Source: an uncultured bacterium
Lineage (GTDB): Bacteria > Acidobacteriota > HRBIN11 > JAKEFK01
Assembly (NCBI GenBank): GCA_963777505.1
Contig: CAVZQN010000004.1
Location: forward strand, 128,001 to 192,000
Length of the DNA stretch: 64,000 bases
Direction of reading: 5' to 3'
The translations under genes were made by a program, and so were the position numbers. Positions 7,074 to 25,004 of this stretch are shown here, piece after piece. Below the pieces are notes generated by a model. The model was not told the DNA's origin. It searched no databases and worked only from the letters and a program-made list of their open reading frames with translations. The first letter of the stretch is position 1. Each line of letters starts with the position of its first letter.

Positions 7074-8663
7074 ATGAGGTATTTAAGGGTTCCCATATTC
7101 TTGGCGTGTATTTTGTTTTGTTCCTTTATTGATGTGGATCCGAAGCCAAGAATCATTCAAGATCATCATCGTTTCTCAGCAAGTCTTAATGGGTTTCCAA
7201 ATTCAATCCAGGGCATCACTCAACCCGGTGTTCTAAATCCGTTCGGCTCTTCGCAATCATTGAATGGAAACCTTCGTTTTTACAGTCTGTGTGGATTGTT
7301 AATTTGTGTTTTAGGGTATGCACTTTATTTTTTCCATCGAAGGCAACTTAAATTTCGGGAACAGGAATTATTAGACGTCGTTTCAGATCGAACTGCTGAG
7401 TTACAGCAAGAAATAAACATTCGTAAAAAAACTGAAGAAGAACTTAAGAATTCGATGACATTATTGATGTCAACTTTTGATCAACTCAAAGCAGCGAAAG
7501 AATCAGCCGAATCGGCAAATCTTTCAAAAAATCAGTTCCTTGCCAATATCAGTCACGAACTGAGGACTCCTATGAACGGGATCATAGGAATGACACAACT
7601 TACATTGGAAACCGATTTGAACGGCGAGCAGCGTGAATATCTTGGGATGGTGAAAGAATCGGCGGATTCATTGTTAGGTTTGCTGAACGATATTCTTGAT
7701 TTTACGAAAATTGAAGCCGGGAAGTTACGCTTATCAATGCTGAGATTTCAATTGCACTCTTCGGTGGAAAAAATTGTAAAAACTTTTAAGACTCCTGCGA
7801 ACCAAAAAAACCTGGAGTTGACTTGTGAATTCGGACCCGATGTTCCTGAGTTTGTGGTTGGAGATGAAAGCCGCATTCGTCAGATTCTTGTGAACCTCAT
7901 CGGCAATGCAATTAAATTCACGAGCCGTGGTTCCGTTTATGTCAAAGTGGAATTGCAAGAAAAGAATACTGAACTTTGCAAAGTTCATTTTTTAGTAAAA
8001 GACACAGGAATTGGAATTCCTGTATCAAAGCACGACATAATTTTTGAAGCGTTTACTCAGGCTGACTCTTCGACAACAAGAAAATATGGCGGAACTGGCC
8101 TGGGATTGTCGATCAGTTTGGAGCTTGTTTCTGCGATGAATGGAAGCATGTGGCTTGAAAGTAAAGAAGGCGGAGGAAGCACATTCCATTTTTCAATTCC
8201 ACTGTTAAATTCAAAATCAATTCTTGATCCAAGCTCACTTGACGATACAAAACCCGCCACAATGATTCATGACGGCCATCATATCCTGGTAGTCGATGAT
8301 AATTTGATCAATCAACGGCTGATCAGCGAAATTTTAGGAAAGCGCGGAAACAAAGTAAAAGTAGCATCAGATGGTAGAGAAGCCTTAAAAATGTATTTGG
8401 AAAATTCATTTGATGTAATTTTGATGGATATTCAAATGCCAATCATGGATGGTCTTGAGGCAGCAAGTAGAATCAGAGTTGAAGAAAAACGAACTGGACA
8501 CCATGTTGCCATTATTGGAATCACAGCTCATGTAACTCAGAACTGTTTGGAGAAATGTCTTCAAGCAGGAATGGATGATTTCATGACAAAACCTTTTCAG
8601 GTAGAAAAATTTCTGCAGATTCTGGGTACAATCCAAACCAGACAACCCTCCACAGTAAGTTAG
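7074..8663 (+). CDS. Hybrid sensor histidine kinase (HisKA-HATPase-receiver)
   Basis: SHELRTPM H-box, NAIKFT, DTGIGI, GGTGLGL; receiver VVDD...MDIQMP...KP. Confidence 0.95.
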
Positions 8664-11277: not shown

Positions 11278-11967
11278 ATGGGTACCTCTCGCATACTAGT
11301 TGTTGATGATGAACCTCAGATCACTCGTGTACTGCGCCGAAGTCTTTCTTCTCAAGGATATGAAGTGCAGGTTGCCGAAGATGGCGAAGAAGCTCTTGCC
11401 GTCTTCAAACAATGGAAACCTGAACTTGTTATTACGGATTTATCAATGCCTGGAATGGGCGGACTTGAATTGTGCCGGCGTATTCGAAAAATTTCGAGTA
11501 TTCCAATAATTGTTTTGTCAGTGAAAGGTGAAGAATCAACAAAAGTCGAAGCTCTGGATACAGGAGCGGATGATTACATTACCAAACCGTTCGGTGTCGA
11601 TGAACTCTTTGCACGTATCCGGGTTTCGTTGCGTCATGGAGCCGTGCCTCATGTTGAAGAAGGAACAAAACTGGAAATTGGAGATTTTAAGATAGATCAA
11701 GCCACACGCAACGTAACTGTCCGGAATAAGGAAGTTCATCTAACCCCGAAGGAGTACGAAATCCTTTTGCATTTCTTACGGAATCCAAATCGCATTCTCA
11801 CGCATCGAGCTCTGTTAGGCGCGCTTTGGGGCGGAGAGTTTGTAGATCAAAATGAATATCTTCGTGTGTTTATAGGGCAGCTTCGTAAGAAAATAGAACT
11901 TGATCCTGCAAAACCGCAGTACATTTTGACCGAACCCTGGGTCGGCTACAGATTCAAAGTTGAATAA
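11278..11967 (+). CDS. kdpE: KdpE response regulator (OmpR family)
   Basis: REC (VVDD, ITDLSMP, TKPF) plus wHTH with KdpE-typical EVHLTPKEY, YLRVFIGQLRKKIE and TEPWVGYRF; kdp context. Confidence 0.92.
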   Translation: MGTSRILVVDDEPQITRVLRRSLSSQGYEVQVAEDGEEALAVFKQWKPELVITDLSMPGMGGLELCRRIRKISSIPIIVLSVKGEESTKVEALDTGADDYITKPFGVDELFARIRVSLRHGAVPHVEEGTKLEIGDFKIDQATRNVTVRNKEVHLTPKEYEILLHFLRNPNRILTHRALLGALWGGEFVDQNEYLRVFIGQLRKKIELDPAKPQYILTEPWVGYRFKVE

Positions 11968-12030
11968 GAAAAGTCTTTGTGCCTTTAGCGGTTAAAAACT
12001 GTGTACCTTAAGACAAAATGAAGAAATGGA

Positions 12031-13137
12031 GTGGTTATCTTATATGGAACTGCCGGCTTAGTGCTGGCAGTTTTGCTTCTATTTCCATTCCGGGAACAGA
12101 TCAATTCCACTCCCGTTGCTTTAACTTTTCTTATTTTAGTTCTGCTTATGGCAGCAATCTTTGGCACATTCCCGGCTATTGTGATGTCGATAGCTTCCAT
12201 GCTTTGTTTTAATTATTTCTTTTTGCCTCCTTACCATACGTTCACAATTACAGACCCACAGAACTGGATTGCACTCTTTGCTTTTCTTGTGACATCAATC
12301 ATCGCAGGAAGTCTTTCTGGAAGAGTGAGGAAACGAGCTGAAGAATCAGAACGTCTTTATCTGGAGCTTCAAGAAATGTTCAAAAAAGCAAGTCAGGCTG
12401 ATGCAATTAAGCAACGAGAGCAGTTGAAGTCAGCTTTACTGGATGCTGTAACTCATGATTTGAGAACTCCTTTGACATCGATGAAAGCTGCAGTTACTAC
12501 GTTGTTAGCAGAGAGTGAATCGACTTTGGATGTTGAAGGCCGGCGAGAAATGCTGGAAGTCATTGATACTGAGATTGACCGATTAAATCATCATCTCGAA
12601 GGCCTGATCGAAATTGCGAAACTTGAAGCGGGAGCAATGCAGCCTCGCCGCATGTGGTCAAGCATTGAAGAAATCATTTCTAATACTCTCGCGCGTGCGT
12701 CAGGGATCACAGCTTCTCACATAATAAAAGTCGAATATGAAGAGAACTTGCCACCAGTTCGTATCGATGAAAAAGCTATTGCAGAAGTCTTGTATCTTTT
12801 GATTGAAAACGCCACAAAATATGCTCCGGTTGAGTCTGAGATTAACGTAAAAGTACAACAAACTGCTGATTTCCTGAAGGTAATTGTCGAAGATCAAGGT
12901 GCAGGGATTCCGGTTGAACTTCGGGAAAAGGTTTTTGACAAATTTTTCCGTTTTGATCCTGTCAATCTTTCGCCGCGTCCGCGTCTTGTTGGGCTCGGAA
13001 TGGGGCTTGCAATTTCGCGTGGAATTATTGAAGCACACTCAGGAAGGATATGGGTTGAAGATACCTCAAGCGGCAAGGGGACTCGCATATGCTTCACCCT
13101 TCCTTTGATGCAATCGGAAGTAAAAGTAGAAGTTTGA
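12031..13137 (+). CDS. kdpD: KdpD-like transmitter kinase (DUF4118-HisKA-HATPase), no KdpD/Usp/GAF sensor domains
   Basis: 4 TM with FNYFFLPPYHTFTI; intact VTHDLRTPL, ENATKY, DQGAGIP, FDKFFR, GLGMGLAI. The true start may be ATG 12018 with a +1 indel (MKKWSGYL-YGTAG). Confidence 0.85.
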   Translation: MVILYGTAGLVLAVLLLFPFREQINSTPVALTFLILVLLMAAIFGTFPAIVMSIASMLCFNYFFLPPYHTFTITDPQNWIALFAFLVTSIIAGSLSGRVRKRAEESERLYLELQEMFKKASQADAIKQREQLKSALLDAVTHDLRTPLTSMKAAVTTLLAESESTLDVEGRREMLEVIDTEIDRLNHHLEGLIEIAKLEAGAMQPRRMWSSIEEIISNTLARASGITASHIIKVEYEENLPPVRIDEKAIAEVLYLLIENATKYAPVESEINVKVQQTADFLKVIVEDQGAGIPVELREKVFDKFFRFDPVNLSPRPRLVGLGMGLAISRGIIEAHSGRIWVEDTSSGKGTRICFTLPLMQSEVKVEV

Positions 13138-13149
13138 TTCTGCCTTCAT

Positions 13150-13188
13150 ACTTACAATATCTTTACGGACTCTTTACTACTTCTTTAC
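13150..13188 (+). promoter_or_regulatory. Putative KdpE-binding direct repeats
   Basis: ACTTAC/CTTTAC/CTTTAC/CTTTAC at 13150, 13161, 13172 and 13183 (11-bp period); resembles the E. coli TTTATA-N5-TTTACA box. Confidence 0.7.
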
Positions 13189-13220
13189 GTTAGCCGCATC
13201 AAAATCAAATCAGGTGAATT

Positions 13221-15890
13221 GTGGAAAGTGAACGTCCGGATCCTGAGCGTTTGTTAAGGCAAATAAAGGCAGAAGAACGAGAGTCGTCTCGTGCAAAGCT
13301 AAAACTGTTTTTCGGACCCTATCCCGGAGTTGGAAAAACATACGCCATGCTTGAAGCAGCTCGGGAAAGAAAAAAGCAAGGCGTTGATGTTGTTGTCGGG
13401 ATTGTTGAAACGCATGGCCGCCCTGAAACAACTGCTTTATTAAAAGACATGGAGATCCTCCCCAGGAAGGAAATTCCTTACAAAGGTGTGGTTTTAAAAG
13501 AATTCGATCTGGATGCAGCTCTCGCACGAAAGCCAGAAATCATTTTGATTGATGAACTCGCCCATTCAAATCCTTCAGAGAGTCGGCATGCGAAGAGATG
13601 GCAGGATGTGGAGGAGCTTCTAAATGAAGGAATTTCCGTTTATACAACATTGAATGTTCAGCATTGGGAAAGTTTGAATGATGTTGTAGCGCAAATTACA
13701 GGGATCAAAGTTCGTGAAACGGTTCCGGATAGTTTTCTTGAGAAAGCTCATGAAGTGGAACTTGTTGATTTGCCTCCTGCGGATTTATTAAAACGTCTGG
13801 CGGAAGGGAAAGTATATATGGGTGATCAGGCGATCCGCGCAGCAGAAAACTTTTTCCAAACAGGAAACTTAATTGCACTGAGAGAACTTGCATTGCGTCA
13901 TACCGCGGAACGTGTGGACGCAGAAATGCAAGAATTTAAGAATCGATATGCAATCACAAAGGTCCTTCCGGTACGAGAAAGGCTTTTAGTAGGGATTACT
14001 GCCTCGCCAAATTCGCGCAGATTAATTAGAGCGACATTGCGGCTGGCTACAAGTTTGCGATGCGAATGGATTACGCTTTACGTTCAAACTGCAGAGCACG
14101 AAAAATTACCTGCGGATCAAAAAGCGCGAATTATCGATACGCTTCGTCTTGCTGAGAGATTGGGTGGAGAAACCGCAGTTCTGACTGGACAAGATGTTTC
14201 TGAAGAGTTGCTCGCGTACGCAAGAGAGCGAAATGTTACAAAGATAGTCTTAGGAAAACCCTCCAGGCCGCGTTGGAAAGAAATTGTTTTTGGATCAACA
14301 GTCAATGAGATTGCGCGGCGTTCAGGCGAAATTGATTTGTATGTGATTAGCGCAGCAAATCTGTCAGATGAAAAAGTCGTTCGCTATAACCGGGCGGAGG
14401 AGCGTCCATCAAATCGTGGAATCGTTGTCGCAATTCTCCTTATTGCGCTTTGTACGGTTTTAGGATGGGCGCTGATTCAATATCTCGACCGCGCAAATCT
14501 AATCATGTCTTATCTGCTTGCCGTTGTATGGCTCTCTTATAAATATGGAAGACGTACGGGAATTGTTGCTTCCGTTTTGAGTGTACTGTGTTTTGATTTC
14601 TTTCTCGTTCCTCCTTACCTGACCTTCCGTGTTACAGACACTGAATACATCATCACTTTTGTTGGGATGCTTGTTGTTTCACTTTTTATCAGCACAATCA
14701 CCGGCCGTCTCGGTTCACTTGTTAAAGCCACCAGAGGGAGAGAAAGAAGGTTAAGAACTTTGTACAAATTAAGCCGGACACTTGCTGAAATTCCTGAACC
14801 GATGGCGATGCTTCAAGCAGCATGGCAACAGCTAAATGATTTTTACAAAATGCCTGTGATTTTGCTAACACCTGACACCACAGGAAAGTTAAGAATTAGC
14901 GCAGGGGATCCGGAGAGATTTGAATTTGCTGGGAATGATGTTCAAGCTGCTGAATGGGTTTTTCGAAATGAAGAAATTGCAGGACGCGGCAGCCAAACAC
15001 TCGCTGGCTCTAAGGGGACCTATATTCCGCTTCGAGGGAGAGAAAAGTCTGTAGGAGTTCTTGGGATCCGCTTAGAGCAAGATTCCGATTTGATTGACCC
15101 CGAACAACTTCGTTTAATGGAAACTTTTGCAGTAGTCATTGGAAGTGCGCTCGAAAGCAAAGAATTATCCGAACAAGCTGGAAAAGCAACAGCATCAATG
15201 GAAGCCGAAAGGTTACGGAATCTTGTGTTGCGATCATTTTCTTTTGATTTAGCCGCACCTTCTCAACAGATTGTGGAGGTAGCGAGCCATTTAAGGAATT
15301 CTCCCGATTTGTCTCAAAATAAAATGCAGGAAGCGATCCAATCTATATGTGAGAATTCGGAACACATTTTTAAGGTTGCATCGAATCTTCCTCATTATCT
15401 GGAAGAGGAAATTCCAGTACTCTCCGATAACATTCTTCCCAGTAACATAGCGCAGGAACTCAATGAAGATGTTCCGCTTTCCATATATCTCAGCACGGAA
15501 AGGATTTTATTTTTCCCTGCTGAAACAACCAGGAAAGAAGTGTTTGAATCGTTGATTCACACCTTAAAGCTTTCGAATGAAAGAGAAGCATTCAAACTAC
15601 TTGCTGAAAGAGAAGAAGCGGGCGGAATTTTGATCAGACCAAATGTTGCAATTCCTCATACAACAATTGATGGTGTTGATGGTGTAAAGGCTTCATTAGG
15701 AATTCAAAAGACAGAAACCGGTACTCCTTTCTTCTGGTTGCTGTTTGTTTCAGGTCCAGATGCAATTCGTCAGCATCTCGAGTTTTTGAAGAGTGCAGCA
15801 CAAACGCTTTCTGACGAAGTTCTGGGAGAATTGTCGAATACAGATAATTCAGGAAAAGTGCTGAGAATATTAGCTGCAAGCGGGGTTTGA
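13221..15890 (+). CDS. kdpD: KdpD sensor (KdpD-Usp-DUF4118-GAF) with a degenerate DHp and a C-terminal PTS EIIA domain in place of HATPase
   Basis: GVGKTYAML, LIDELAH, KRWQDVEELL, LRELALR; Usp; 4 TM; GAF; H-box reads SFSFDLAAP; C-terminus EREEAGG..NVAIPH...HLEFL matches PTS_EIIA_2. Confidence 0.9.
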   Translation: MESERPDPERLLRQIKAEERESSRAKLKLFFGPYPGVGKTYAMLEAARERKKQGVDVVVGIVETHGRPETTALLKDMEILPRKEIPYKGVVLKEFDLDAALARKPEIILIDELAHSNPSESRHAKRWQDVEELLNEGISVYTTLNVQHWESLNDVVAQITGIKVRETVPDSFLEKAHEVELVDLPPADLLKRLAEGKVYMGDQAIRAAENFFQTGNLIALRELALRHTAERVDAEMQEFKNRYAITKVLPVRERLLVGITASPNSRRLIRATLRLATSLRCEWITLYVQTAEHEKLPADQKARIIDTLRLAERLGGETAVLTGQDVSEELLAYARERNVTKIVLGKPSRPRWKEIVFGSTVNEIARRSGEIDLYVISAANLSDEKVVRYNRAEERPSNRGIVVAILLIALCTVLGWALIQYLDRANLIMSYLLAVVWLSYKYGRRTGIVASVLSVLCFDFFLVPPYLTFRVTDTEYIITFVGMLVVSLFISTITGRLGSLVKATRGRERRLRTLYKLSRTLAEIPEPMAMLQAAWQQLNDFYKMPVILLTPDTTGKLRISAGDPERFEFAGNDVQAAEWVFRNEEIAGRGSQTLAGSKGTYIPLRGREKSVGVLGIRLEQDSDLIDPEQLRLMETFAVVIGSALESKELSEQAGKATASMEAERLRNLVLRSFSFDLAAPSQQIVEVASHLRNSPDLSQNKMQEAIQSICENSEHIFKVASNLPHYLEEEIPVLSDNILPSNIAQELNEDVPLSIYLSTERILFFPAETTRKEVFESLIHTLKLSNEREAFKLLAEREEAGGILIRPNVAIPHTTIDGVDGVKASLGIQKTETGTPFFWLLFVSGPDAIRQHLEFLKSAAQTLSDEVLGELSNTDNSGKVLRILAASGV

Positions 15891-15891
15891 C

Positions 15892-16635
15892 ATGCAATTT
15901 AAGAAACTCATGGGTTACATAGCATCGGTGGGAACAATCGCTCTGACGGTTTTACTTTTCAAGCGCATTTTCTCGGATGCTACACCGGCAACCGTCGCTC
16001 TTATACTCGTTGTTGAGGTGTTGTTCGCAGCAACTTTTGGCGGATTCGGTCCTGGACTTTTAGCAGCTGTAATAGCAGCATTGTCATTCAATTTCTTTTT
16101 CCTTCCTCCTTATGGAACTTTCACGATTGCCCATCCTGCAGATGTTGTATCGTTTTTTGTCTTCCTTTCAACTGCAATTGTTGTGAGCAAATTATCCTCT
16201 GCCGTGCGACAACGTGCAGTAGAAGCAGAGCGCAGAAAAGATGAAGTAGAGCATCTTTATCAGTTTGCAAAGGTACTGATTGAAACTCCCGATACTCTTG
16301 AAGGTGCATCATCCATCGCCAGCAAGATCGTTGAAATTTTCCGAGTAAAGTATGCAGGCATCTATGTTCCTGACAAAAGCGGCAAATGGAAACATGTATC
16401 AGTGAGTTCAAATGAGCTTAAGGACATAGCTCTACCTCAGCCGGAAACATTACGAAGCAACACAATCGCCGAGATGATTGATGAATATGGGAAGGGGGTC
16501 CAATACACGGTTATGAACACTCCTTCTCGAAACATTGGCGTGATAGCGTTGCGTGCACCTGATCTGTCCAAGGATACGATCGCAGCCATTGCAAGTCTCG
16601 TTGCTCTTACTGTTGAAAGAAATCGGTTAATCTAG
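15892..16635 (+). CDS. DUF4118 (KdpD TM) plus GAF-like protein with no kinase domain
   Basis: FNFFFLPPYGTFTI, 4 TM, coiled coil EAERRKDEVEHLY, GAF-like region; ends at ALTVERNRLI*; starts 1 bp after the upstream stop. Confidence 0.85.
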   Translation: MQFKKLMGYIASVGTIALTVLLFKRIFSDATPATVALILVVEVLFAATFGGFGPGLLAAVIAALSFNFFFLPPYGTFTIAHPADVVSFFVFLSTAIVVSKLSSAVRQRAVEAERRKDEVEHLYQFAKVLIETPDTLEGASSIASKIVEIFRVKYAGIYVPDKSGKWKHVSVSSNELKDIALPQPETLRSNTIAEMIDEYGKGVQYTVMNTPSRNIGVIALRAPDLSKDTIAAIASLVALTVERNRLI

Positions 16636-16727
16636 GTTTCAGACACTCAATAACAGCGCGACTTGCGTTTTTTTCTGCACCCTTTAAGATATCTTCACAC
16701 ATTGAGGCAGAGGGGATATAAACTCCA

Positions 16728-19104
16728 TTGATTGATCAGACGATTTCGCATTACACCATTCTCAAAAAGCTTGGTGGCGGTGGAATGGGAGTCGTGTATG
16801 AAGCGGAGGATCTTAGCCTCAAACGTCATGTTGCACTCAAATTCCTTCCTGAATCGGTAGCTGAGACTCCGGAGACGCTTGAACGTTTCCGGCGGGAAGC
16901 ACAATCAGCATCTGCGCTTAATCATCCAAATATCTGCACGATATACGAAATTGGTGAACACGATGGTCGTCCTTTCATTGCAATGGAGATGATGAAGGGT
17001 GAGACCTTGAAGCATGCGATTGATGGAAAGCCAATGGAGATTGATACCGTGCTCGATCTGGGGGCACAAATTGCAGATGCGCTCGATGCTGCGCATACGG
17101 AAAGGATTATTCACCGTGACATTAAGCCGGCAAACATATTCGTCACAGAACGTGGCCAGGCAAAGCTGCTGGATTTTGGATTGGCAAAACAGGGAACAGC
17201 AGCGACTGGAGATACTGAAATGCCAACGGCCAGTACTCCGGCACAATTGACGCAAGCTGGTTCTACTCTGGGCACATTTGCGTATATGTCCCCCGAACAA
17301 GCGCGCGGCAAAGTGCTTGATTCGCGTACCGATCTTTTCTCTTATGGAGTTGTGCTCTATGAAATGGTAACCGGCACCCAACCTTTTGTTGGCAGCAGTA
17401 CAGGCGAAGTATTGGAAGCTATTTTTACAAAGGTACCAGTGTCGCCTGTGCGCTTAAATCCGAATATTCCTGTAGAACTAGAACGCATCATATATAAGGC
17501 GCTCGAAAAGGATCCCAATCTGCGATACCGAAGCGCCGCTGATATTCGAACTGATCTTCAACGATTGAAGAGAGACACTCTTTCCAGCGTTCCAGGCAGC
17601 ACTGTTGCAAGAGATACAGCTACAAAAATCCACTCAGCAAAAAAGTCACGGACACTCTGGGTTGGTGTCACAGCTGCAGTGGCAACAATAGTTCTGCTTG
17701 TAGTTTTCTGGCTAGGCCAAAAACCGAAGACCGCAGTGCAAACTACTGGTCCGATTTCGATAGCCGTGCTCCCGTTTGTAAACATGAGTGCGGATAAAAA
17801 TCAGGAATATTTTTCCGATGGCCTTTCAGAACAATTGCTAAACGATCTGGCCAAAACTCGTGGCTTGCGCGTAATCGCAAGAACTTCGTCTTTTCAATTT
17901 AAGGGAAAGAATGAAGACCTTCGTGTGATTGGTAAAAAATTGGATGTTGCAAATATATTGGAAGGAAGTGTACGGAAAGAGGGGAATAAAGTGCGAATTA
18001 CTGCGCAATTAATTCAAACTTCAGATGGATCCCATTTATGGTCTGATACCTATGATCGAGAACTAAATGATGTTTTTGCGGTGCAGGATGATATTGCACG
18101 ATCCGTAGCTGGAGCATTGAAGGTCACGCTTCTAGGACAAACAGCAAGTAGTTCAAAGTCACAAAATGCGGAAGCATATAACCTTTACCTGCAAGGTCGT
18201 TACTTCCAAGATCGAAGCACCATGGAAGACCTTCAGAAGGCGACAAACTCTTTTGAGCAAGCACTTCAACTTGAGCCTGGCTATGCTCTGGCCCACGCAG
18301 GCTTAGCCAGTATTTACTTTAGGCAGGCAGGTTTGGGCCACCTCGCCGCTGTTGAAGGCTTTGAAAAAACGCGGAATGAGGTAGAAAAAGCGCTGAAGAC
18401 CGATCCAAATTTGGCCGAGGCCTACGCAATGCTAGGGCGGGTCCAATTGAATTATGACTGGGATTGGGCCGGTGCCGATGCTTCCTTTCAGAGAGCGTTG
18501 GAACTGGAACCAGGGAACGCGAGAGCAGTTCGGAACGCTGCCGTTCTTGCTGGTACTCTTGGCAGGTTTGAAGAAGCCATTGAACTGAATCTGAAAGCAA
18601 TCGACCTCGATCCTCTAAACATCGGAAGCTATTTGAATCTCGCAAGCTGGTACCACTCTGCCGGCCGGTTGAAGGAGTCAGAGTCCACAACGGCGAAGGC
18701 CTTGAAGCTAAATCCACAATTTCCTGGTGCACACTATCGGATTTTCCTTCTCTACCTGGACACAAATCCGCAAGCGGCACTTGCTGAGATAAAGCGCGAA
18801 ACAGAGCCAATCTGGCGCGACCAAGGTCTCGCTCTGGTTACCTATGCGATGGGGAATAAAAAAGAGGCGGACAAAGTACTTGACAAAGTATATTGAAGAT
18901 TCCCAGACTATCGCGGCTTTTCAGATCGCCCAGATTTATGCCTACCGTCGTGAAACGGATTACACATTCGAATGGCTTGAACGTGCTTATCAACAACATG
19001 ACGGTGGTCTTGCCGAAATGAAAGGCGATCCGTTGCTGCGCAACATCGAAAATGACCCACGATATGCGGCATTCCTGAAAAAAATGAAACTGCCTCTGGA
19101 TTAA
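16728..19104 (+). CDS. Hanks-type Ser/Thr kinase with TM, TolB-like and TPR domains (one apparent +1 frameshift near 18880)
   Basis: [30 protein letters not shown]; SIAVLPF..YFSDGL; TPRs; the C-terminal [19 protein letters not shown] is in the next frame. Confidence 0.9.
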
Positions 19105-19207: not shown

Positions 19208-20300
19208 ATGAATAGACTCCTACTACTCGTCTCGCTTTTACTGAGCTCAATTTGTATAGCACAAACTGAAAATGAGGGTGAGGCTGAAGAACCTCCCGCT
19301 GTAACCTTTAGCGGATTTTTGGAAGCTTATTACTCTTATGACTTCGATAATCCCGATGATCATAAACGGCCATTTTTTCTTTACTCGTATAACAAGCACA
19401 ATGAAGTCAATATCAATCTTGCTTACCTTAAGGCTGCTTACAATTCGGAAAGAGTTCGCGGCAATCTTGCCCTTATGGCTGGTACATATGCAAACGCAAA
19501 CCTTGCTGCAGAATCAGGAGTTTTAAAGAATATTTATGAAGCCAATGGAGGCATCAAGGTTTCTCAAGATCGGGATCTCTGGATCGATGCAGGAATTTTT
19601 GGTTCTCATATTGGTTTCGAAACCGCAATTGGACCAAGCAACTGGACATTAACCCGCAGCATTCTTGCTGAAAATTCTCCATACTACGAGTCCGGCGCAA
19701 AAGTTTCTTACACATACTGATGGGGGAGAGTGGTTTTTTAGCGGATTAATCTTAAACGGCTGGCAACGGATTGAAAGACCAGAAGGGAATAATACTCCAG
19801 CATTTGGAACTCAATTAACCTATAAGCCGAGCGATACATTCTTCTTCAACTACAGCACTTTTATCGGAAATGATAAACCAGATGATGCAAAGCAATGGCG
19901 TAATTTCCATGACTTTTATGCGATAGCTCAGCTCACTCCAAAATTCGGGATCACCGCAGGATTCGATATTGGTTTTGAAGAAGAACCGCCAGGCGGTGAG
20001 GGCTATAACACCTGGTGGACACCGATCGTGATCGTGAGATATTCAGCAACAGACAAAATCAACATTGCTGCAAGAGCGGAATATTACAGCGATGAAGACG
20101 GAGTGATTGTTGCTACAGGAACACCAAATGGATTCAAGACAGCCAGTTACTCAGTCAATGTTGATTACGCATTTACCGATCATATTCTCTGGCGAATTGA
20201 GGGACGAGGATTTCACAGCGAAGATGACATTTTTAACGTGACCGAAGATCCATCCTCATCCAATTTTGCAATGACTACATCGCTGTCTTTGACATTTTGA
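19208..20300 (+). CDS. Outer-membrane beta-barrel porin (BBP2-like), +1 frameshift near 19710
   Basis: Signal peptide; amphipathic beta pattern (FSGFLEAYYSYDF, SHIGFE, AENSPYY, RAEYYSD); C-terminal Phe (SLSLTF). Confidence 0.82.
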
Positions 20301-20303
20301 AGT

Positions 20304-20333
20304 GTACGGGGCGGGTCTTAGACCCGCCCCTAC
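20304..20333. repeat. GTAG-type REP palindrome
   Basis: GGGGCGGGTCT-T-AGACCCGCCCC perfect palindrome followed by TAC. Confidence 0.85.
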
Positions 20334-20348
20334 GAACAGGAGCTTGTT

Positions 20349-20435
20349 ATGTGGGATCTTTTTTTTATCGGATTAACAATCGTTTTTTTCTTACTCAGTC
20401 TCGCTTACGTGCGAGGATGTGAGAAATTGCAGTAG
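20349..20435 (+). CDS. 28-aa single-TM peptide upstream of kdpF (not in the ORF track)
   Basis: MWDLFFIGLTIVFFLLSLAYVRGCEKLQ*; RBS CAGGAG; its stop overlaps the kdpF RBS. Confidence 0.75.
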   Translation: MWDLFFIGLTIVFFLLSLAYVRGCEKLQ

Positions 20436-20445
20436 GAGAAACATT

Positions 20446-20535
20446 ATGGGTCTCGAATCAATTTTAGGGCTGACCGTTTCTGTATTGCTGCTTTTCTATT
20501 TGGTCTACGCGTTGTTGAGTCCCGAGAGGTTCTAA
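20446..20535 (+). CDS. kdpF: K+-transporting ATPase subunit F (not in the ORF track)
   Basis: MGLESILGLTVSVLLLFYLVYALLSPERF* with the hallmark YLxYALLxPExF; RBS AGGAG; 1 bp before kdpA. Confidence 0.92.
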   Translation: MGLESILGLTVSVLLLFYLVYALLSPERF

Positions 20536-20536
20536 G

Positions 20537-22337
20537 ATGACAATCAACGGCTGGCTACAAATTCTTTTTTATTTTCTATTGATTCTGTTGGTGACAAAAC
20601 CAATTGGCGTATTCATGGCACGTGTTTTTAACCGTGAAAAAACATTTCTCGATCCCGTTTTGAGACCAATTGAAAGGTTGATTTATAAATTGACCGGGGT
20701 TGATGAGAATCGTGAAATGCGTTGGACGGAATACGCGGTTGCGATGTTGCTGTTTAGCGTTGTTTCCATGGTTGTTCTTTATTTCATGCAACGGTTGCAG
20801 CATATTCTGCCTTTCAATCCGCAAAACTTAGCTGCGATTAATGAACATTCGTCTTTTAATACAGCAGCATCTTTTACGACAAACACAAACTGGCAGAGTT
20901 ATGTGCCTGAAGTAACGATGAGCTATCTCACACAGATGGCAGGCCTGGCTTATCACAACTTCATTTCTGCGGCTGTTGGAATTGCACTTGCAATCGCTTT
21001 CATACGCGGGATAGCCAGACGGGAAATGAATACGATTGGAAATTTCTGGGTTGATACGGTACGAGCAACTCTGTGGGTGCTGTTGCCGTTTTGCGTTGTT
21101 GGTGCTCTGTTTCTAGTTTCGCAAGGCGTGGTTCAAAATCTGAACCCATACGACACGGTTCAGCTTGTTGGAAAAACAAACGACTGAAGTCGATAAAAAG
21201 GATGAGGCAGGAAATGTCATTACAAATCCGGATGGCACCACTGCTAAGAAATCAACACAAACAATCGCTCAAGGCCCGGTAGCATCTCAAGAATTCATAA
21301 AAGAATGGGGAACGAATGGCGGCGGATTTTTCAATGCAAATAGTTCACATCCATTCGAAAATCCGACACCGTTTTCAAACTTAATTGAAATGTTTGCGAT
21401 TTTTGCGATTTCAGCTGGACTCACTTACACCCTAGGTCAGAATGACCGGCTCACAAAAACATGGATGGGCAGTATTCGCCGCAATGGCATTTCTCTTTTT
21501 TGTAGGCGTCACGGTAGCGTACTGGGCCGAATCGAATGGAAATCCATTGTTAACCGGTACAGATCAAAGCACGAGTGCAACGCAATCCGGCGGCAATATG
21601 GAAGGGAAGGAAATTCGATTTGGACTTGCGAATAGTGCTTTGTTTGCGACCGTAACCACGGATGCGTCCTGCGGCGCAGTAAATTCGATGCACGATTCCT
21701 ACACCCGCATTGGGCGGATTGGTACCGCTTTCAAACATCATGCTCAGTGAAGTGGTCTTTGGCGGAGTCGGCGCAGGAATGTACGGAGTACTCATCTATA
21801 TAGTGCTCTCGGTTTTCATTGCAGGATTAATGGTTGGCAGAACGCCAGAATATTTAGGAAAAAAGATCGAATCCTATGACGTAAAGATGGCAATGCTGAA
21901 TATTCTGATTTTTCCTCTCTTCATACTCGTTCTTACTGGCATTTCTGTAGTTGCATCATTTGGATCTATCCAGTATTTGGAATCCTGGGCCCCATGGGCT
22001 AAGCGAAGTTTTGTATGCCTTCACTTCTGGAACTGGAAATAACGGATCGGCTTTCGCAGGAATTTCAGCGAACACTCCCTGGTATAACACGACGATCGGC
22101 CTAGCGATGCTGTTTGGCCGCTTCTTCATGATTATTCCAGTGCTGGCTTTAGCAGGAAATCTCGCACGGAAGAAAACAGTGCCAGCAAGTCCAGGCACTT
22201 TTCCAGTAACCACGCCTTTATTCACTGTCTTACTTGTAAGTGTGATTTTGATTGTCGGTGCACTGACATTTTTTCCGGTACTAAGCCTTGGACCTATTGT
22301 GGAACATCTGTTGCTGTATGCCGGAAAAACATTTTGA
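20537..22337 (+). CDS. kdpA: K+-transporting ATPase subunit A (four apparent +1 frameshifts)
   Basis: [37 protein letters not shown] and NNGSAFAG filter motifs, spread over five ORF fragments. Confidence 0.93.
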
Positions 22338-22347
22338 GGTTGTATAA

Positions 22348-24393
22348 ATGACAACGAAAGCAAAGAAACAAGCGATTTGGAATACGCAAATTGTAACGCG
22401 TGCTCTGATTGATTCCTTTAAGAAACTAAATCCACGGATCATGATGAAGAATCCTGTCATGTTTGTTGTGGAAGTGGGGAGTGTAATCACAACGATCTTG
22501 TTGATTCGGGACCTCATGGCAGGCACCGGTGGTATCGGGTTCGCACTTCAAATCACGCTCTGGCTCTGGTTCACAGTATTGTTTGCAAATTTTGCTGAAG
22601 CGATGGCTGAAGGCCGCGGAAAAGCGCAGGCTGAAAATCTAAAAAAAGCGCGAACCGAAATCTAACGCACATCGCGCTTTTGCCAAAGGAGAAACTGAAA
22701 CAGTTCCCGCTCCAAAATTACGCAAGGATGATGTTGTTATTGTTTCGGCCGGCGAATTCATTCCAAGTGATGGTGAAATTATTGAAGGTGTCGCTTCAGT
22801 GGATGAATCTGCAATTACAGGTGAATCTGCTCCCGTTATCCGTGAAGCAGGTGGAGACCGCTCTGCAGTTACAGGCGGAACCCGTGTCTTATCAGACCAA
22901 ATCAAAGTCCGAATCACATCGAATCCAGGTGAGACTTTTCTTGATCGAATGATTGGACTGGTTGAAGGAGCGACACGACAAAAGACGCCGAATGAAATCG
23001 CATTAAATATTTTGCTTGCAGGTTTAACCATCATCTTTCTTGTTTGCTGTCGTTACTCTGCAACCTTTTGCGATTTATTCAAAAGCACCACAATCCATTT
23101 TTGTATTGGTTTCACTGCTGGTTTGTCTGATTCCAACAACAATCGGTGGTTTGCTTTCAGCAATCGGTATTGCTGGAATGGATCGTTTAATTCAACACAA
23201 TGTTCTTGCAATGTCTGGACGATCCGTAGAGGCTGCAGGAGATGTAAATACGTTGTTGTTGGATAAAACGGGAACGATCACACTTGGCAACCGTCAGGCA
23301 TCCGAATTTATTCCGCTTCCTGGAGTTGATGAAACCACGCTTGCTGATGCTGCTCAGCTTTCTTCGCTTGCGGACGAAACTCCTGAAGGTCGAAGCATCG
23401 TTGTATTAGCAAAAGAAAAATATAAAATGCGTGGCCGTGAGCTGGCACCGCACGAAGCTCGTTTCATTAAATTCAGCGCACAAACACGGATGTCGGGTGT
23501 TGATTATGATGGCCGGATCATTCGAAAAGGTGCAGCGGATGCAATCGAGAAATTTGTTGTCAGCAATCAGGGTGCTGCTCCAAAAGAGTTGCGTGAAATT
23601 GTAGAACGCATTGCAAAAGCCGGCGGCACACCACTTGTTGTCGCGGAGAATGCAAAAGCACTCGGTGTCATTCACTTAAAAGACATTGTTAAAGGTGGAA
23701 TGAAAGAACGGTTTACTCAACTGCGGGCGATGGGAATTAAAACAATCATGATCACCGGTGATAATCCACTCACTGCCGCTTCTATCGCAGCTGAAGCCGG
23801 TGTCGATGATTTTCTGGCTGAAGCAACACCTGAAGAAAAAATGACGTTGATTAAGAAGGAACAAACTGAAGGCAAACTTGTAGCAATGACTGGTGATGGT
23901 ACGAACGACGCTCCTGCGCTGGCTCAAGCCGACGTTGCTGTCGCAATGAATACAGGGACGCAAGCTGCGAAAGAAGCAGGAAATATGGTGGATCTGGATT
24001 CGAATCCTACGAAGCTAATTGAAATTGTTGAGATCGGGAAACAGCTCTTGATGACGCGCGGAGCTCTGACAACATTTTCAATTTCAAATGATGTCGCAAA
24101 ATACTTTGCGATAATTCCTGCGATGTTTTCTGCTGCCTTTCCGGTTTTGAATGCATTAAACATCATGGGCTTACGCACGCCTCAATCAGCAATTCTTTCT
24201 GCCGTAATTTTCAATGCGCTAATTATCATCGCTTTGATCCCACTCGCTCTTCGCGGTGTAAAATACAGGCCGACTTCCGGCTGCTGCTCTATTAAGGAGG
24301 AATCTGGTGGTTTATGGAGTTGGCGGCATAATCGTTCCATTTATAGGCATCAAAATCATTGATGTTTTCATCAATGCAATCGGACTTGCGTAA
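22348..24393 (+). CDS. kdpB: K+-transporting P-type ATPase subunit B (three apparent +1 frameshifts)
   Basis: [54 protein letters not shown]. Confidence 0.95.
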
Positions 24394-24397
24394 CGAA

Positions 24398-24430
24398 TTT
24401 GCAGCGCCGGCGGGCCGCCGGCGCTACAAA
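24398..24430. repeat. GTAG-type REP-like hairpin between kdpB and kdpC
   Basis: TTTGCAGCGCCGGCGG-G-CCGCCGGCGCTACAAA, 16-bp arms with one mismatch. Confidence 0.7.
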
Positions 24431-24444
24431 CAGGAGAGGTGAAT

Positions 24445-25004
24445 ATGAAAAATCTGAAGATTGCAATTTTAATGACGATTGTAACAACGCTTTTTCTTGG
24501 AATCGATTTATCCACTCGTAGTAACAGGTCTTGCTCAAGTTTTGTTTCCTGACAAAGCGAATGGACAATTAATTAAAAGATAAAAATGGAGCTGTTATCG
24601 GCTCTCGAATCATCGGTCAACCATTTTCATCCTCCAAATATTTTCATTCACGACCTTCGGCCGCGGGCGCAGTCGGCTATGATGCAGGAGCTTCCAGTGG
24701 TTCGAACCTTGGCCCCACAAACCAGAAGCTGATTGACCGCGTAAAAGCTGATGTGGAAAAACGACAGGCGGAAAATCCAGGTACGCCCGTTCCAATTGAT
24801 CTTGTCACTACATCTTCATCAGGACTTGATCCGCACATTTCTCCGGCTGCTGCAGAATTTCAGGTTCCACGAATTGCACGTGAACGTGGTATGAGTGAAG
24901 AGGAACTCCGAAAGCTTGTGGCCAAACATACTGAGGGCAGGCAATTTGGATTTTTAGGAGAACCACGGGTGAATGTACTTTTGTTGAATTTGGATCTTGA
25001 TTAA
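24445..25004 (+). CDS. kdpC: K+-transporting ATPase subunit C (two apparent +1 frameshifts)
   Basis: MKNLKIAIL.., [64 protein letters not shown]. Confidence 0.92.

Follow-up and report, generated by a model that had tools for sequence, protein, structure and literature searches.

A KdpD-like protein with a PtsN-like EIIA domain in place of the histidine-kinase catalytic domain, within a recurrent Kdp gene set of an uncultured acidobacterial family

KdpD of Escherichia coli is reported to be a tandem serine/histidine kinase (PMC11018627). In that account, its N-terminal motifs are those of an atypical serine kinase, comprising Walker A, Walker B and adenine-binding residues, and the KdpD domain alone phosphorylates Ser162 of the pump subunit KdpB, the dimerization and histidine-phosphotransfer (DHp) and catalytic and ATP-binding (CA) domains not being needed. 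The same source describes split systems, in which the serine kinase (KdpD/Usp) and the histidine kinase (transmembrane (TM)/GAF/DHp-CA) are separate chains, as commonest in Acidobacteriota and Chloroflexota. In E. coli, R. leguminosarum, S. fredii and P. putida, free PtsN (EIIA-Ntr), an EIIA protein of the phosphotransferase system (PTS), is reported to act in trans on KdpD (PMC9239096; PMC13104625); its unphosphorylated form is described as binding KdpD via the HisKA domain in E. coli and via the GAF domain in S. fredii (PMC9239096), and a ptsN gene is placed within the kdp cluster of rhizobia (PMC13104625). Here we analysed a 64,000-nucleotide stretch of DNA (hereafter the window; contig CAVZQN010000004.1, positions 128,001 to 192,000, assembly GCA_963777505.1) from an uncultured acidobacterium, in which a kdpE-like gene is followed by three genes, termed A, B and C, each encoding the four-TM DUF4118 module of KdpD. 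Protein B keeps the serine-kinase residues, has lost the phospho-accepting histidine and carries a PtsN-like EIIA domain where the CA domain is expected; together with A, C, kdpE and kdpFABC, it recurs in four genomes of one family.

The four open reading frames (ORFs) lie on the forward strand, at exactly the positions given in a preliminary description of the locus. The first (11278–11967) encodes a response regulator of the OmpR family of 229 amino acids with Pfam Response_reg and Trans_reg_C domains, whose best NCBIfam match is KdpE (214 bits, under the 325-bit cut-off) and which is 73–75% identical to the A-adjacent regulator of three relatives from the same family (genomes G041, G108 and G155, the window's own genome being G000). 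It is followed by A (12031–13137), which Pfam identifies as a minimal DUF4118 histidine kinase of 368 residues; by B (13221–15890), for which Pfam and NCBIfam indicate an 889-residue KdpD-like protein that lacks histidine-kinase function and ends in an EIIA domain; and by C (15892–16635), a DUF4118 and GAF stub of 247 residues. The motif F[ND]xFxxPPYxTF, already noted in the preliminary description, was found in A, B and C, which account for all DUF4118 matches in the 5.2-Mb genome, the sole match to the KdpD N-terminal domain being that in B. A single frameshifted kdpD was ruled out, each of the three genes having its own TM module.

Along its chain, B comprises the KdpD N-terminal domain with the atypical serine-kinase module (residues 24–232, positions 13290–13916; PF02702, 318 bits), a Usp domain (253–368, 13977–14324; PF00582, 43.5 bits), the DUF4118 four-TM module with the motif FDFFLVPP (402–498, 14424–14714; PF13493, 103.5 bits), a GAF domain of type GAF_3 (530–645, 14808–15155; PF13492, 43 bits), a pseudo-DHp hairpin in which Phe or Tyr replaces His in an H-box-like helix (approximately 655–745, 15183–15455) and a PtsN-like EIIA domain (PTS_EIIA_2; 760–885, 15498–15875; PF00359, 33.2 bits, E = 6e-8). 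The order of the domains up to and including the DHp-like hairpin is that of E. coli KdpD, from which B differs in having Phe or Tyr for His and EIIA for CA, with the histidine-kinase function on the separate protein A. Residues 2–691 of B aligned with the NCBIfam KdpD model NF007793 at 674.6 bits, below the whole-protein cut-off of 1123 and only as far as model position 689 of 895; the H-box His and HATPase_c are missing, PTS_EIIA_2 standing in place of the latter. The model for KdpD-like non-kinase potassium sensors (NF038185) was matched by residues 5–377 at 390.8 bits, under its cut-off of 550, and B has 500 further residues.

Residue counts by column were taken from an alignment of 31 family sequences of B, including the window's own. 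Column 675, at the position of the phospho-accepting His, was occupied by Phe in 14 sequences and by Tyr in 17, neither Thr nor Asn was found at the H+4 position in any of them, and no HATPase domain was present. The preliminary description had credited B with all the sensor domains and no working transmitter; the transmitter is indeed dead, but the protein is not just a sensor half, as a catalytic N-terminal domain and an output-type EIIA domain are present. The Walker A residues G32-x5-G38, K39 and T40, the Walker B pair D111 and E112, and R192 were invariant in 31/31 sequences, with Tyr or Phe at position 41. Among the three DUF4118 proteins, B alone has the Walker A (G-x5-GKT) and Walker B (DE) motifs of the KdpD N-terminal domain, which A and C lack altogether. 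The TGES motif is present in kdpB of G000, G041 and G108. A serine-kinase role is proposed for B because these motifs are kept throughout the family and because of the function that PMC11018627 reports for them. Within the pseudo-DHp, which matched the DHp of HK853 weakly (E = 0.05–0.1), the invariant positions include M660, E663, R664, N667, V669–S672, D676 and P680, and helix 1 was better conserved than most of the C-terminal third of the protein. So strong a conservation of the pseudo-DHp argues for a protein partner, which may be A or KdpE.

The EIIA domain, which had been missed in the preliminary description, exceeds the Pfam cut-off of 27 bits. I811-P812-H813, with the active-site His of PF00359, and H852 were invariant in all 31 sequences of B. 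The nearest solved structures are PtsN proteins (3urr/4gqx, E of about 1e-3), and a profile matched E. coli PtsN (1a6j) with E = 0.0026; identity to the PtsN encoded by the genome itself is 27%, and the active-site histidines align. As B scored 17.6 bits against the PtsN equivalog TIGR01419, whose cut-off is 138.7, the domain is termed PtsN-like rather than a PtsN orthologue. A PTS gene cluster of the order lptB-rpoN-hpf-ptsN-hprK-rapZ-EIIA(Man)-HPr-EI is found in the genome, which also encodes a diadenylate cyclase; these genes provide a putative chain of phosphoryl donors to H813 and, potentially, a cyclic di-AMP input for the Usp domain. As in the systems with free PtsN, a PtsN-type EIIA with a putatively phosphorylatable His is associated with Kdp control, and the window genome has a free PtsN as well; unlike in those systems, the EIIA of B lies within a KdpD-like chain that is unable to act as a histidine kinase, in a non-proteobacterial lineage.

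Protein A showed DUF4118 (residues 5–108, 103 bits), HisKA (133–201) and HATPase_c (246–359, 82.6 bits) alone in Pfam, which bears out its earlier description as an intact kinase lacking KdpD, Usp and GAF domains; the spacing of only about 34 residues between the last TM helix and the His leaves it without a GAF domain. H142 of the DHp, N260 of the N-box and the G-box glycines, the hallmarks of a HisKA-type kinase, were invariant in 21/21 A-type sequences, the H+4 position is Thr, and kdpE is the neighbouring gene in 4/4 genomes. Against the KdpD model NF007793 (cut-off 1123), A scored 165.2 bits and C 64.1 bits. These data support A as the only one of the three DUF4118 proteins predicted to autophosphorylate on His.

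The start codon of C (ATG at 15892) follows the stop codon of B (TGA at 15888–15890) after a single nucleotide. Pfam found only DUF4118 in C (PF13493, 90.7 bits), which ends at the expected start of the DHp. A profile comparison with hhalign aligned residues 7–247 of C with residues 399–656 of B, that is, the TM and GAF parts, at a probability of 99.6%, and five metagenomic orthologues of C (248–258 residues, 51–77% identical) end at the same residue; both results agree with the preliminary description of a TM plus GAF protein that stops where the DHp would begin. A metagenome scan with C returned no close orthologue loci, its best matches (28–40% identity) being the TM-GAF parts of ordinary kinase chains. 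It yielded mostly two-part loci, in which a TM-GAF-kinase chain is encoded divergently from a KdpD-N/Usp chain that neighbours kdpE and kdpFABC. The present locus resembles such two-part split systems in its separated activities, in having kdpE and kdpFABC at the same locus and in the TM type of A and C, which those systems share; it differs from them in that the serine-kinase chain keeps TM, GAF and pseudo-DHp parts and adds EIIA, the kinase chain is without GAF and a third, TM-GAF chain is present.

A search with the last 230 residues of B among 5.8 billion proteins found 32 sequences that were 42–98% identical in that part. Thirty-one of them comprised KdpD, Usp, DUF4118 and EIIA, one was partial, and all those that were named were labelled Acidobacteriota; the 31 members of the B family span 884–909 residues and share one architecture. 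The B-type C-terminus was present in 4 of the 13 genomes of the class (G000, G041, G108 and G155), all from one family. A sample of 401 genomes of the phylum returned the same four, plus two weak matches to free EIIA ORFs of 154–159 residues. When 185,579 species genomes were scanned with a pattern, the whole pseudo-DHp and EIIA part was matched only in the same three relatives, the other 77 loci matching at most the first 113 residues, which correspond to the DHp helix of ordinary KdpDs.

The KdpD N-terminal domain and kdpA were found in exactly the four class genomes that have the B-type C-terminus, and each of these carries an A-, a B- and a C-type DUF4118 gene at its kdp locus. The possibility raised in the preliminary description that the arrangement is unique to this assembly is thereby contradicted, A, kdpE, B, C and kdpFABC occurring together in 4/4 Kdp-bearing genomes of the class. 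The A-B-C order, which the preliminary description proposed to look for in related genomes, was not recovered: the run kdpE-A-B-C is peculiar to the window genome, where it is followed by a Ser/Thr kinase gene, a porin gene and kdpABC, and the relatives show A-kdpE, then a porin or unknown ORFs, then C-kdpA-kdpB-kdpC-B. B lies directly after kdpC in G041 and G155, one unknown ORF of 254 residues intervening in G108, and A adjoins kdpE in all four genomes. In two further genomes, G071 and G096, an A-type gene was seen at the very end of a contig (L174 and L175, respectively), with no kdpA or KdpD N-terminal domain elsewhere in these fragmented genomes of the family; the fragmentation means that this lack says little, and assembly of the kdp locus seems to be difficult in this family.

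Selection was assessed by comparing the proportions of non-synonymous (pN) and synonymous (pS) differences and not as a dN/dS ratio, synonymous sites being saturated in every pair (pS 0.71–0.83). The pN values were 0.16–0.19 for kdpE, 0.23–0.26 for A, 0.21–0.26 for B and 0.23–0.31 for C among the three relatives. B and the relatives' C thus lie far below pS, and the neutral evolution of B and C that the preliminary description had considered is not observed.

EIIA domains were also found joined to the serine-kinase module in other proteins, and a shorter, soluble form of this fusion is common in other families of the phylum. The KdpD N-terminal domain occurred in 145 of the 401 genomes of the phylum sample, and 13 of the ORFs listed were of 548–609 residues; 12 of these short ORFs were fetched and 10 run through Pfam (L194–L203, from genomes G058, G365, G166, G206, G373, G092, G243, G265, G276 and G304). 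All ten (548–596 residues) were soluble fusions of the KdpD N-terminal domain with EIIA, a Usp match being present in eight; TM, GAF and pseudo-DHp parts were absent, and the EIIA active-site column was His in 10/10. Their genes follow the pump genes as kdpB-kdpC-KdpD-N in 11 of 12 loci, with kdpB only in the remaining one. These short fusions resemble B in combining the serine-kinase module with an EIIA that has its active-site His and in the placement of the gene directly after the pump genes; they differ from it in lacking TM, GAF and pseudo-DHp parts and in an EIIA clade (98/91) that is separate from the B-type clade (100/99).

A further search with residues 651–889 of B against 1.84 billion cluster representatives gave 63 matches, about seven of which, all fragments, span the pseudo-DHp and EIIA, the remainder being free EIIA-sized proteins. 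Protein P0207 (825 residues, from the cluster of P0167; 3.4-kb contig) comprises KdpD-N, Usp, DUF4118, GAF and EIIA without the pseudo-DHp hairpin, and is 56% identical to B over residues 5–665 and 34% identical in the EIIA. Judged by their sequences, there are at least three forms that join EIIA to the serine-kinase module, namely the B-type, the 825-residue and the soluble short form, which may have one origin or several. In a tree of TM modules, the B-type modules (FDFFLVPP) formed one clade (100/100), and those of A, C and the TM-GAF-kinase chains of two-part systems (FNFFFLPP) formed the other (100/100), within which the four A proteins grouped together (87/93) and the C proteins weakly so (92/73), along with two truncated kinases. 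Separately, 18 EIIA domains in long ORFs of 438–956 residues (L176–L193, from 18 genomes of the phylum sample) were compared with KdpD, and none of these ORFs was similar to any part of it.

Our favoured reading, which we consider fairly probable on the strength of these sequence comparisons, is that A, B and C belong to a Kdp control set, remodelled and conserved in a single uncultured family: A with KdpE would govern transcription, B would be a pump-directed serine-kinase sensor with a PTS input, and C would be an accessory. We infer the activities and contacts within the set as follows. The two catalytic jobs of E. coli KdpD would be divided between separate membrane proteins. Kinase A would phosphorylate the adjacent KdpE and so switch transcription of kdpFABC. 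B, having lost the DHp His and exchanged the CA domain for the PtsN-like EIIA, retains the serine-kinase module, Usp and the putatively K+-sensing TM and GAF parts, and would phosphorylate the serine of the KdpB TGES motif to restrain the pump under K+ sufficiency. EI and HPr would phosphorylate His813 of the EIIA, which may either set the activity of the serine kinase or relay a nutrient signal to kinase A, and C would most likely be a modulator of A or B, acting via its membrane and GAF regions. That EIIA may bring the state of the PTS into Kdp control is suggested by what is reported of PtsN (PMC9239096; PMC13104625). The recurrence of the fusion in chains lacking a TM or a DHp part leads us to lean towards action in cis on the serine kinase of B over action in trans on A.

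Several observations weigh against this account. A role as a serine kinase pure and simple does not explain the conservation of the pseudo-DHp, with its 12 invariant residues. The match of the EIIA domain of B to Pfam is modest (33 bits), and the separate clades of the EIIA tree mean that the likeness of the two fusion types may not reflect common descent. The window's C is only 28–32% identical to that of the relatives (pN 0.49), whose C proteins are 51–65% identical among themselves; so divergent a sequence renders the orthology and role of C uncertain, and that role is the weakest part of the overall picture. Finally, the porin gene and kdpABC of the window carry at least nine frame changes, as judged by tblastn with G041 proteins, and if these are real, B is without a working target in the window genome.

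The preliminary description had proposed hetero-oligomers formed through the TM and coiled-coil regions, with B and C modulating kinase A. In a sharpened version of that model, the three proteins would assemble into a single hetero-oligomeric sensor kinase, in which B, through its pseudo-DHp or EIIA, and C, through its TM and GAF parts, would switch A between its autokinase and phosphatase states; we regard this as a possible but tentative alternative, judged from sequence features. B would then be a built-in PtsN–KdpD complex or a pseudo-kinase partner of the RetS kind, either of which is compatible with its proposed serine-kinase role. In the multikinase network of Pseudomonas aeruginosa, RetS is reported to disrupt the GacS dimer via the DHp (PMC8498467); control of a membrane kinase by a kinase-like membrane protein in this manner thus has a precedent, albeit in an unrelated family and for a contact that is hypothetical between B and A. 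Besides the high conservation of pseudo-DHp helix 1 relative to most of the C-terminal third, such an assembly is consistent with the reported binding of PtsN to the HisKA or GAF domain of KdpD (PMC9239096), with the GAF domain that A lacks and C supplies, with the FNFFFLPP-type TM module (100/100) that A and C share with ordinary TM-GAF-kinase chains, and with the 1-nt gap between B and C in the window. The ten soluble fusions and the 825-residue form, however, lack the TM and/or DHp parts with which to pair with a kinase, locus L090 has an A-type kinase without any C-type gene, and in the relatives C and B lie on either side of the pump genes, away from A-kdpE. A more elaborate proposal, and a doubtful one, is that B acts as a covalent PtsN–KdpD complex and two-way switch, its EIIA docking on the dead DHp of B or on the DHp of A according to the state of His813, so that one PTS signal would set pump transcription (via A/KdpE) and pump inhibition (via B) in opposite directions, with C supplying the GAF surface that A lacks.

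The position of EIIA where CA would be, beside a conserved DHp-like hairpin, could also indicate that B is a phosphodonor driven by phosphoenolpyruvate: EI and HPr, the genes of which are present, would phosphorylate the invariant H813, the pseudo-DHp would dock KdpE, and the PTS would control KdpE without ATP, by transfer or sequestration. We know of no precedent for transfer from an EIIA to a receiver domain, no search for one having been made; moreover, forms without the pseudo-DHp exist and an intact kinase A is always beside kdpE, so that this mechanism appears very improbable. Least credible of all, and already contradicted by the conservation data, is that B and C are decaying leftovers of duplicated kdpD genes, or that an assembly prone to frameshifts has produced the three-gene picture: frame changes abound in the adjacent pump genes and single ones occur in the relatives as well, but each gene has a complete TM module, B is an 889-residue frame without a stop whose 31 family members of 884–909 residues share one architecture with invariant serine-kinase and EIIA catalytic residues, pN is far below pS, the C orthologues share their end point, and the set persists in four genomes despite a different gene order.

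Parts of this picture are already published, namely the split of serine- and histidine-kinase chains, the contact of PtsN with KdpD in trans and the presence of ptsN in the rhizobial kdp cluster. The preliminary description had stated that no account of the arrangement was known; this stands for the replacement by EIIA and for the third, TM-GAF protein, but not for the chain split, which is described in PMC11018627. Our literature searches found no paper describing a KdpD–EIIA fusion, with the qualification that the supplementary tables of PMC11018627, on KdpD versions in 5495 species, may include such forms. New here are the membrane-bound fusion form with a dead DHp, the kinase partner without GAF and the third TM-GAF protein. 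Through its EIIA fusion, B would tie nutrient signalling physically to potassium control. Control of KdpD by PtsN is known only in trans in Proteobacteria, where the binding site is a matter of dispute between HisKA (E. coli) and GAF (S. fredii), and the existence of a gene fusion in a distant phylum provides independent evidence for an old, direct link between the PTS and potassium. In all three fusion forms (B-type, 825-residue and soluble short), it is the serine-kinase module to which EIIA is joined, which suggests that the pump-directed serine kinase, and not only the histidine kinase, may be a target of the PTS. The set also presents KdpD taken apart by nature, as a bare kinase, a sensor without kinase function and a TM-GAF fragment, and might therefore be useful for finding where in KdpD K+ is sensed and the signal transmitted.

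The genes for a BBP2 porin, kdpA, kdpB and kdpC lie downstream on the forward strand (19208–25004), identified by Pfam on the kdpB and kdpC pieces and by tblastn, and all contain frame changes: kdpA is in five frame pieces and kdpC in two in the window assembly. No frame changes occur in the 7.6 kb that run from kdpE to the Ser/Thr kinase gene, and the pump genes of the relatives are whole (kdpA 580–583, kdpB 689 and kdpC 190–195 residues). Several of the frame junctions of the window lie near short A or T runs, and single frame changes are found in the relatives' assemblies, in B of G108, kdpB of G155 and A of G041; both features fit consensus errors, though the pump genes of the window may instead have truly decayed. 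Noise in a nucleotide alignment of the pump genes with a metagenome locus of 67% identity precluded placement of the indels.

Transfer or recombination seems to have exchanged the pump genes. kdpA (N-terminal part) is 76–77% and kdpB 82–84% identical to the genes of metagenome loci with ordinary two-part regulators (L007–L012, L016, L018 and L038; window 20537–24362), compared with only 48–53% and 72–74%, respectively, for the pump genes of its own family; the porin is of the family type (57–64% identical).

Between C and the porin gene, a Ser/Thr protein kinase of 722 residues with tetratricopeptide repeats is encoded at 16728–18896, for which tblastn gave no match in the kdp loci retrieved from the three relatives. 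Just 3' of C, a pattern scan identified a terminator-like hairpin followed by a T-run on the forward strand (16655–16669); such sites numbered 12 overall against 10.0 expected, which is not above chance, so that this hairpin is suggestive by position only. A few kilobases upstream of kdpE, and separated from it by a divergent ABC-2 transporter pair, lies a gene for a hybrid histidine kinase with HisKA, HATPase_c and receiver domains and no recognised sensor domain (7074–8663).

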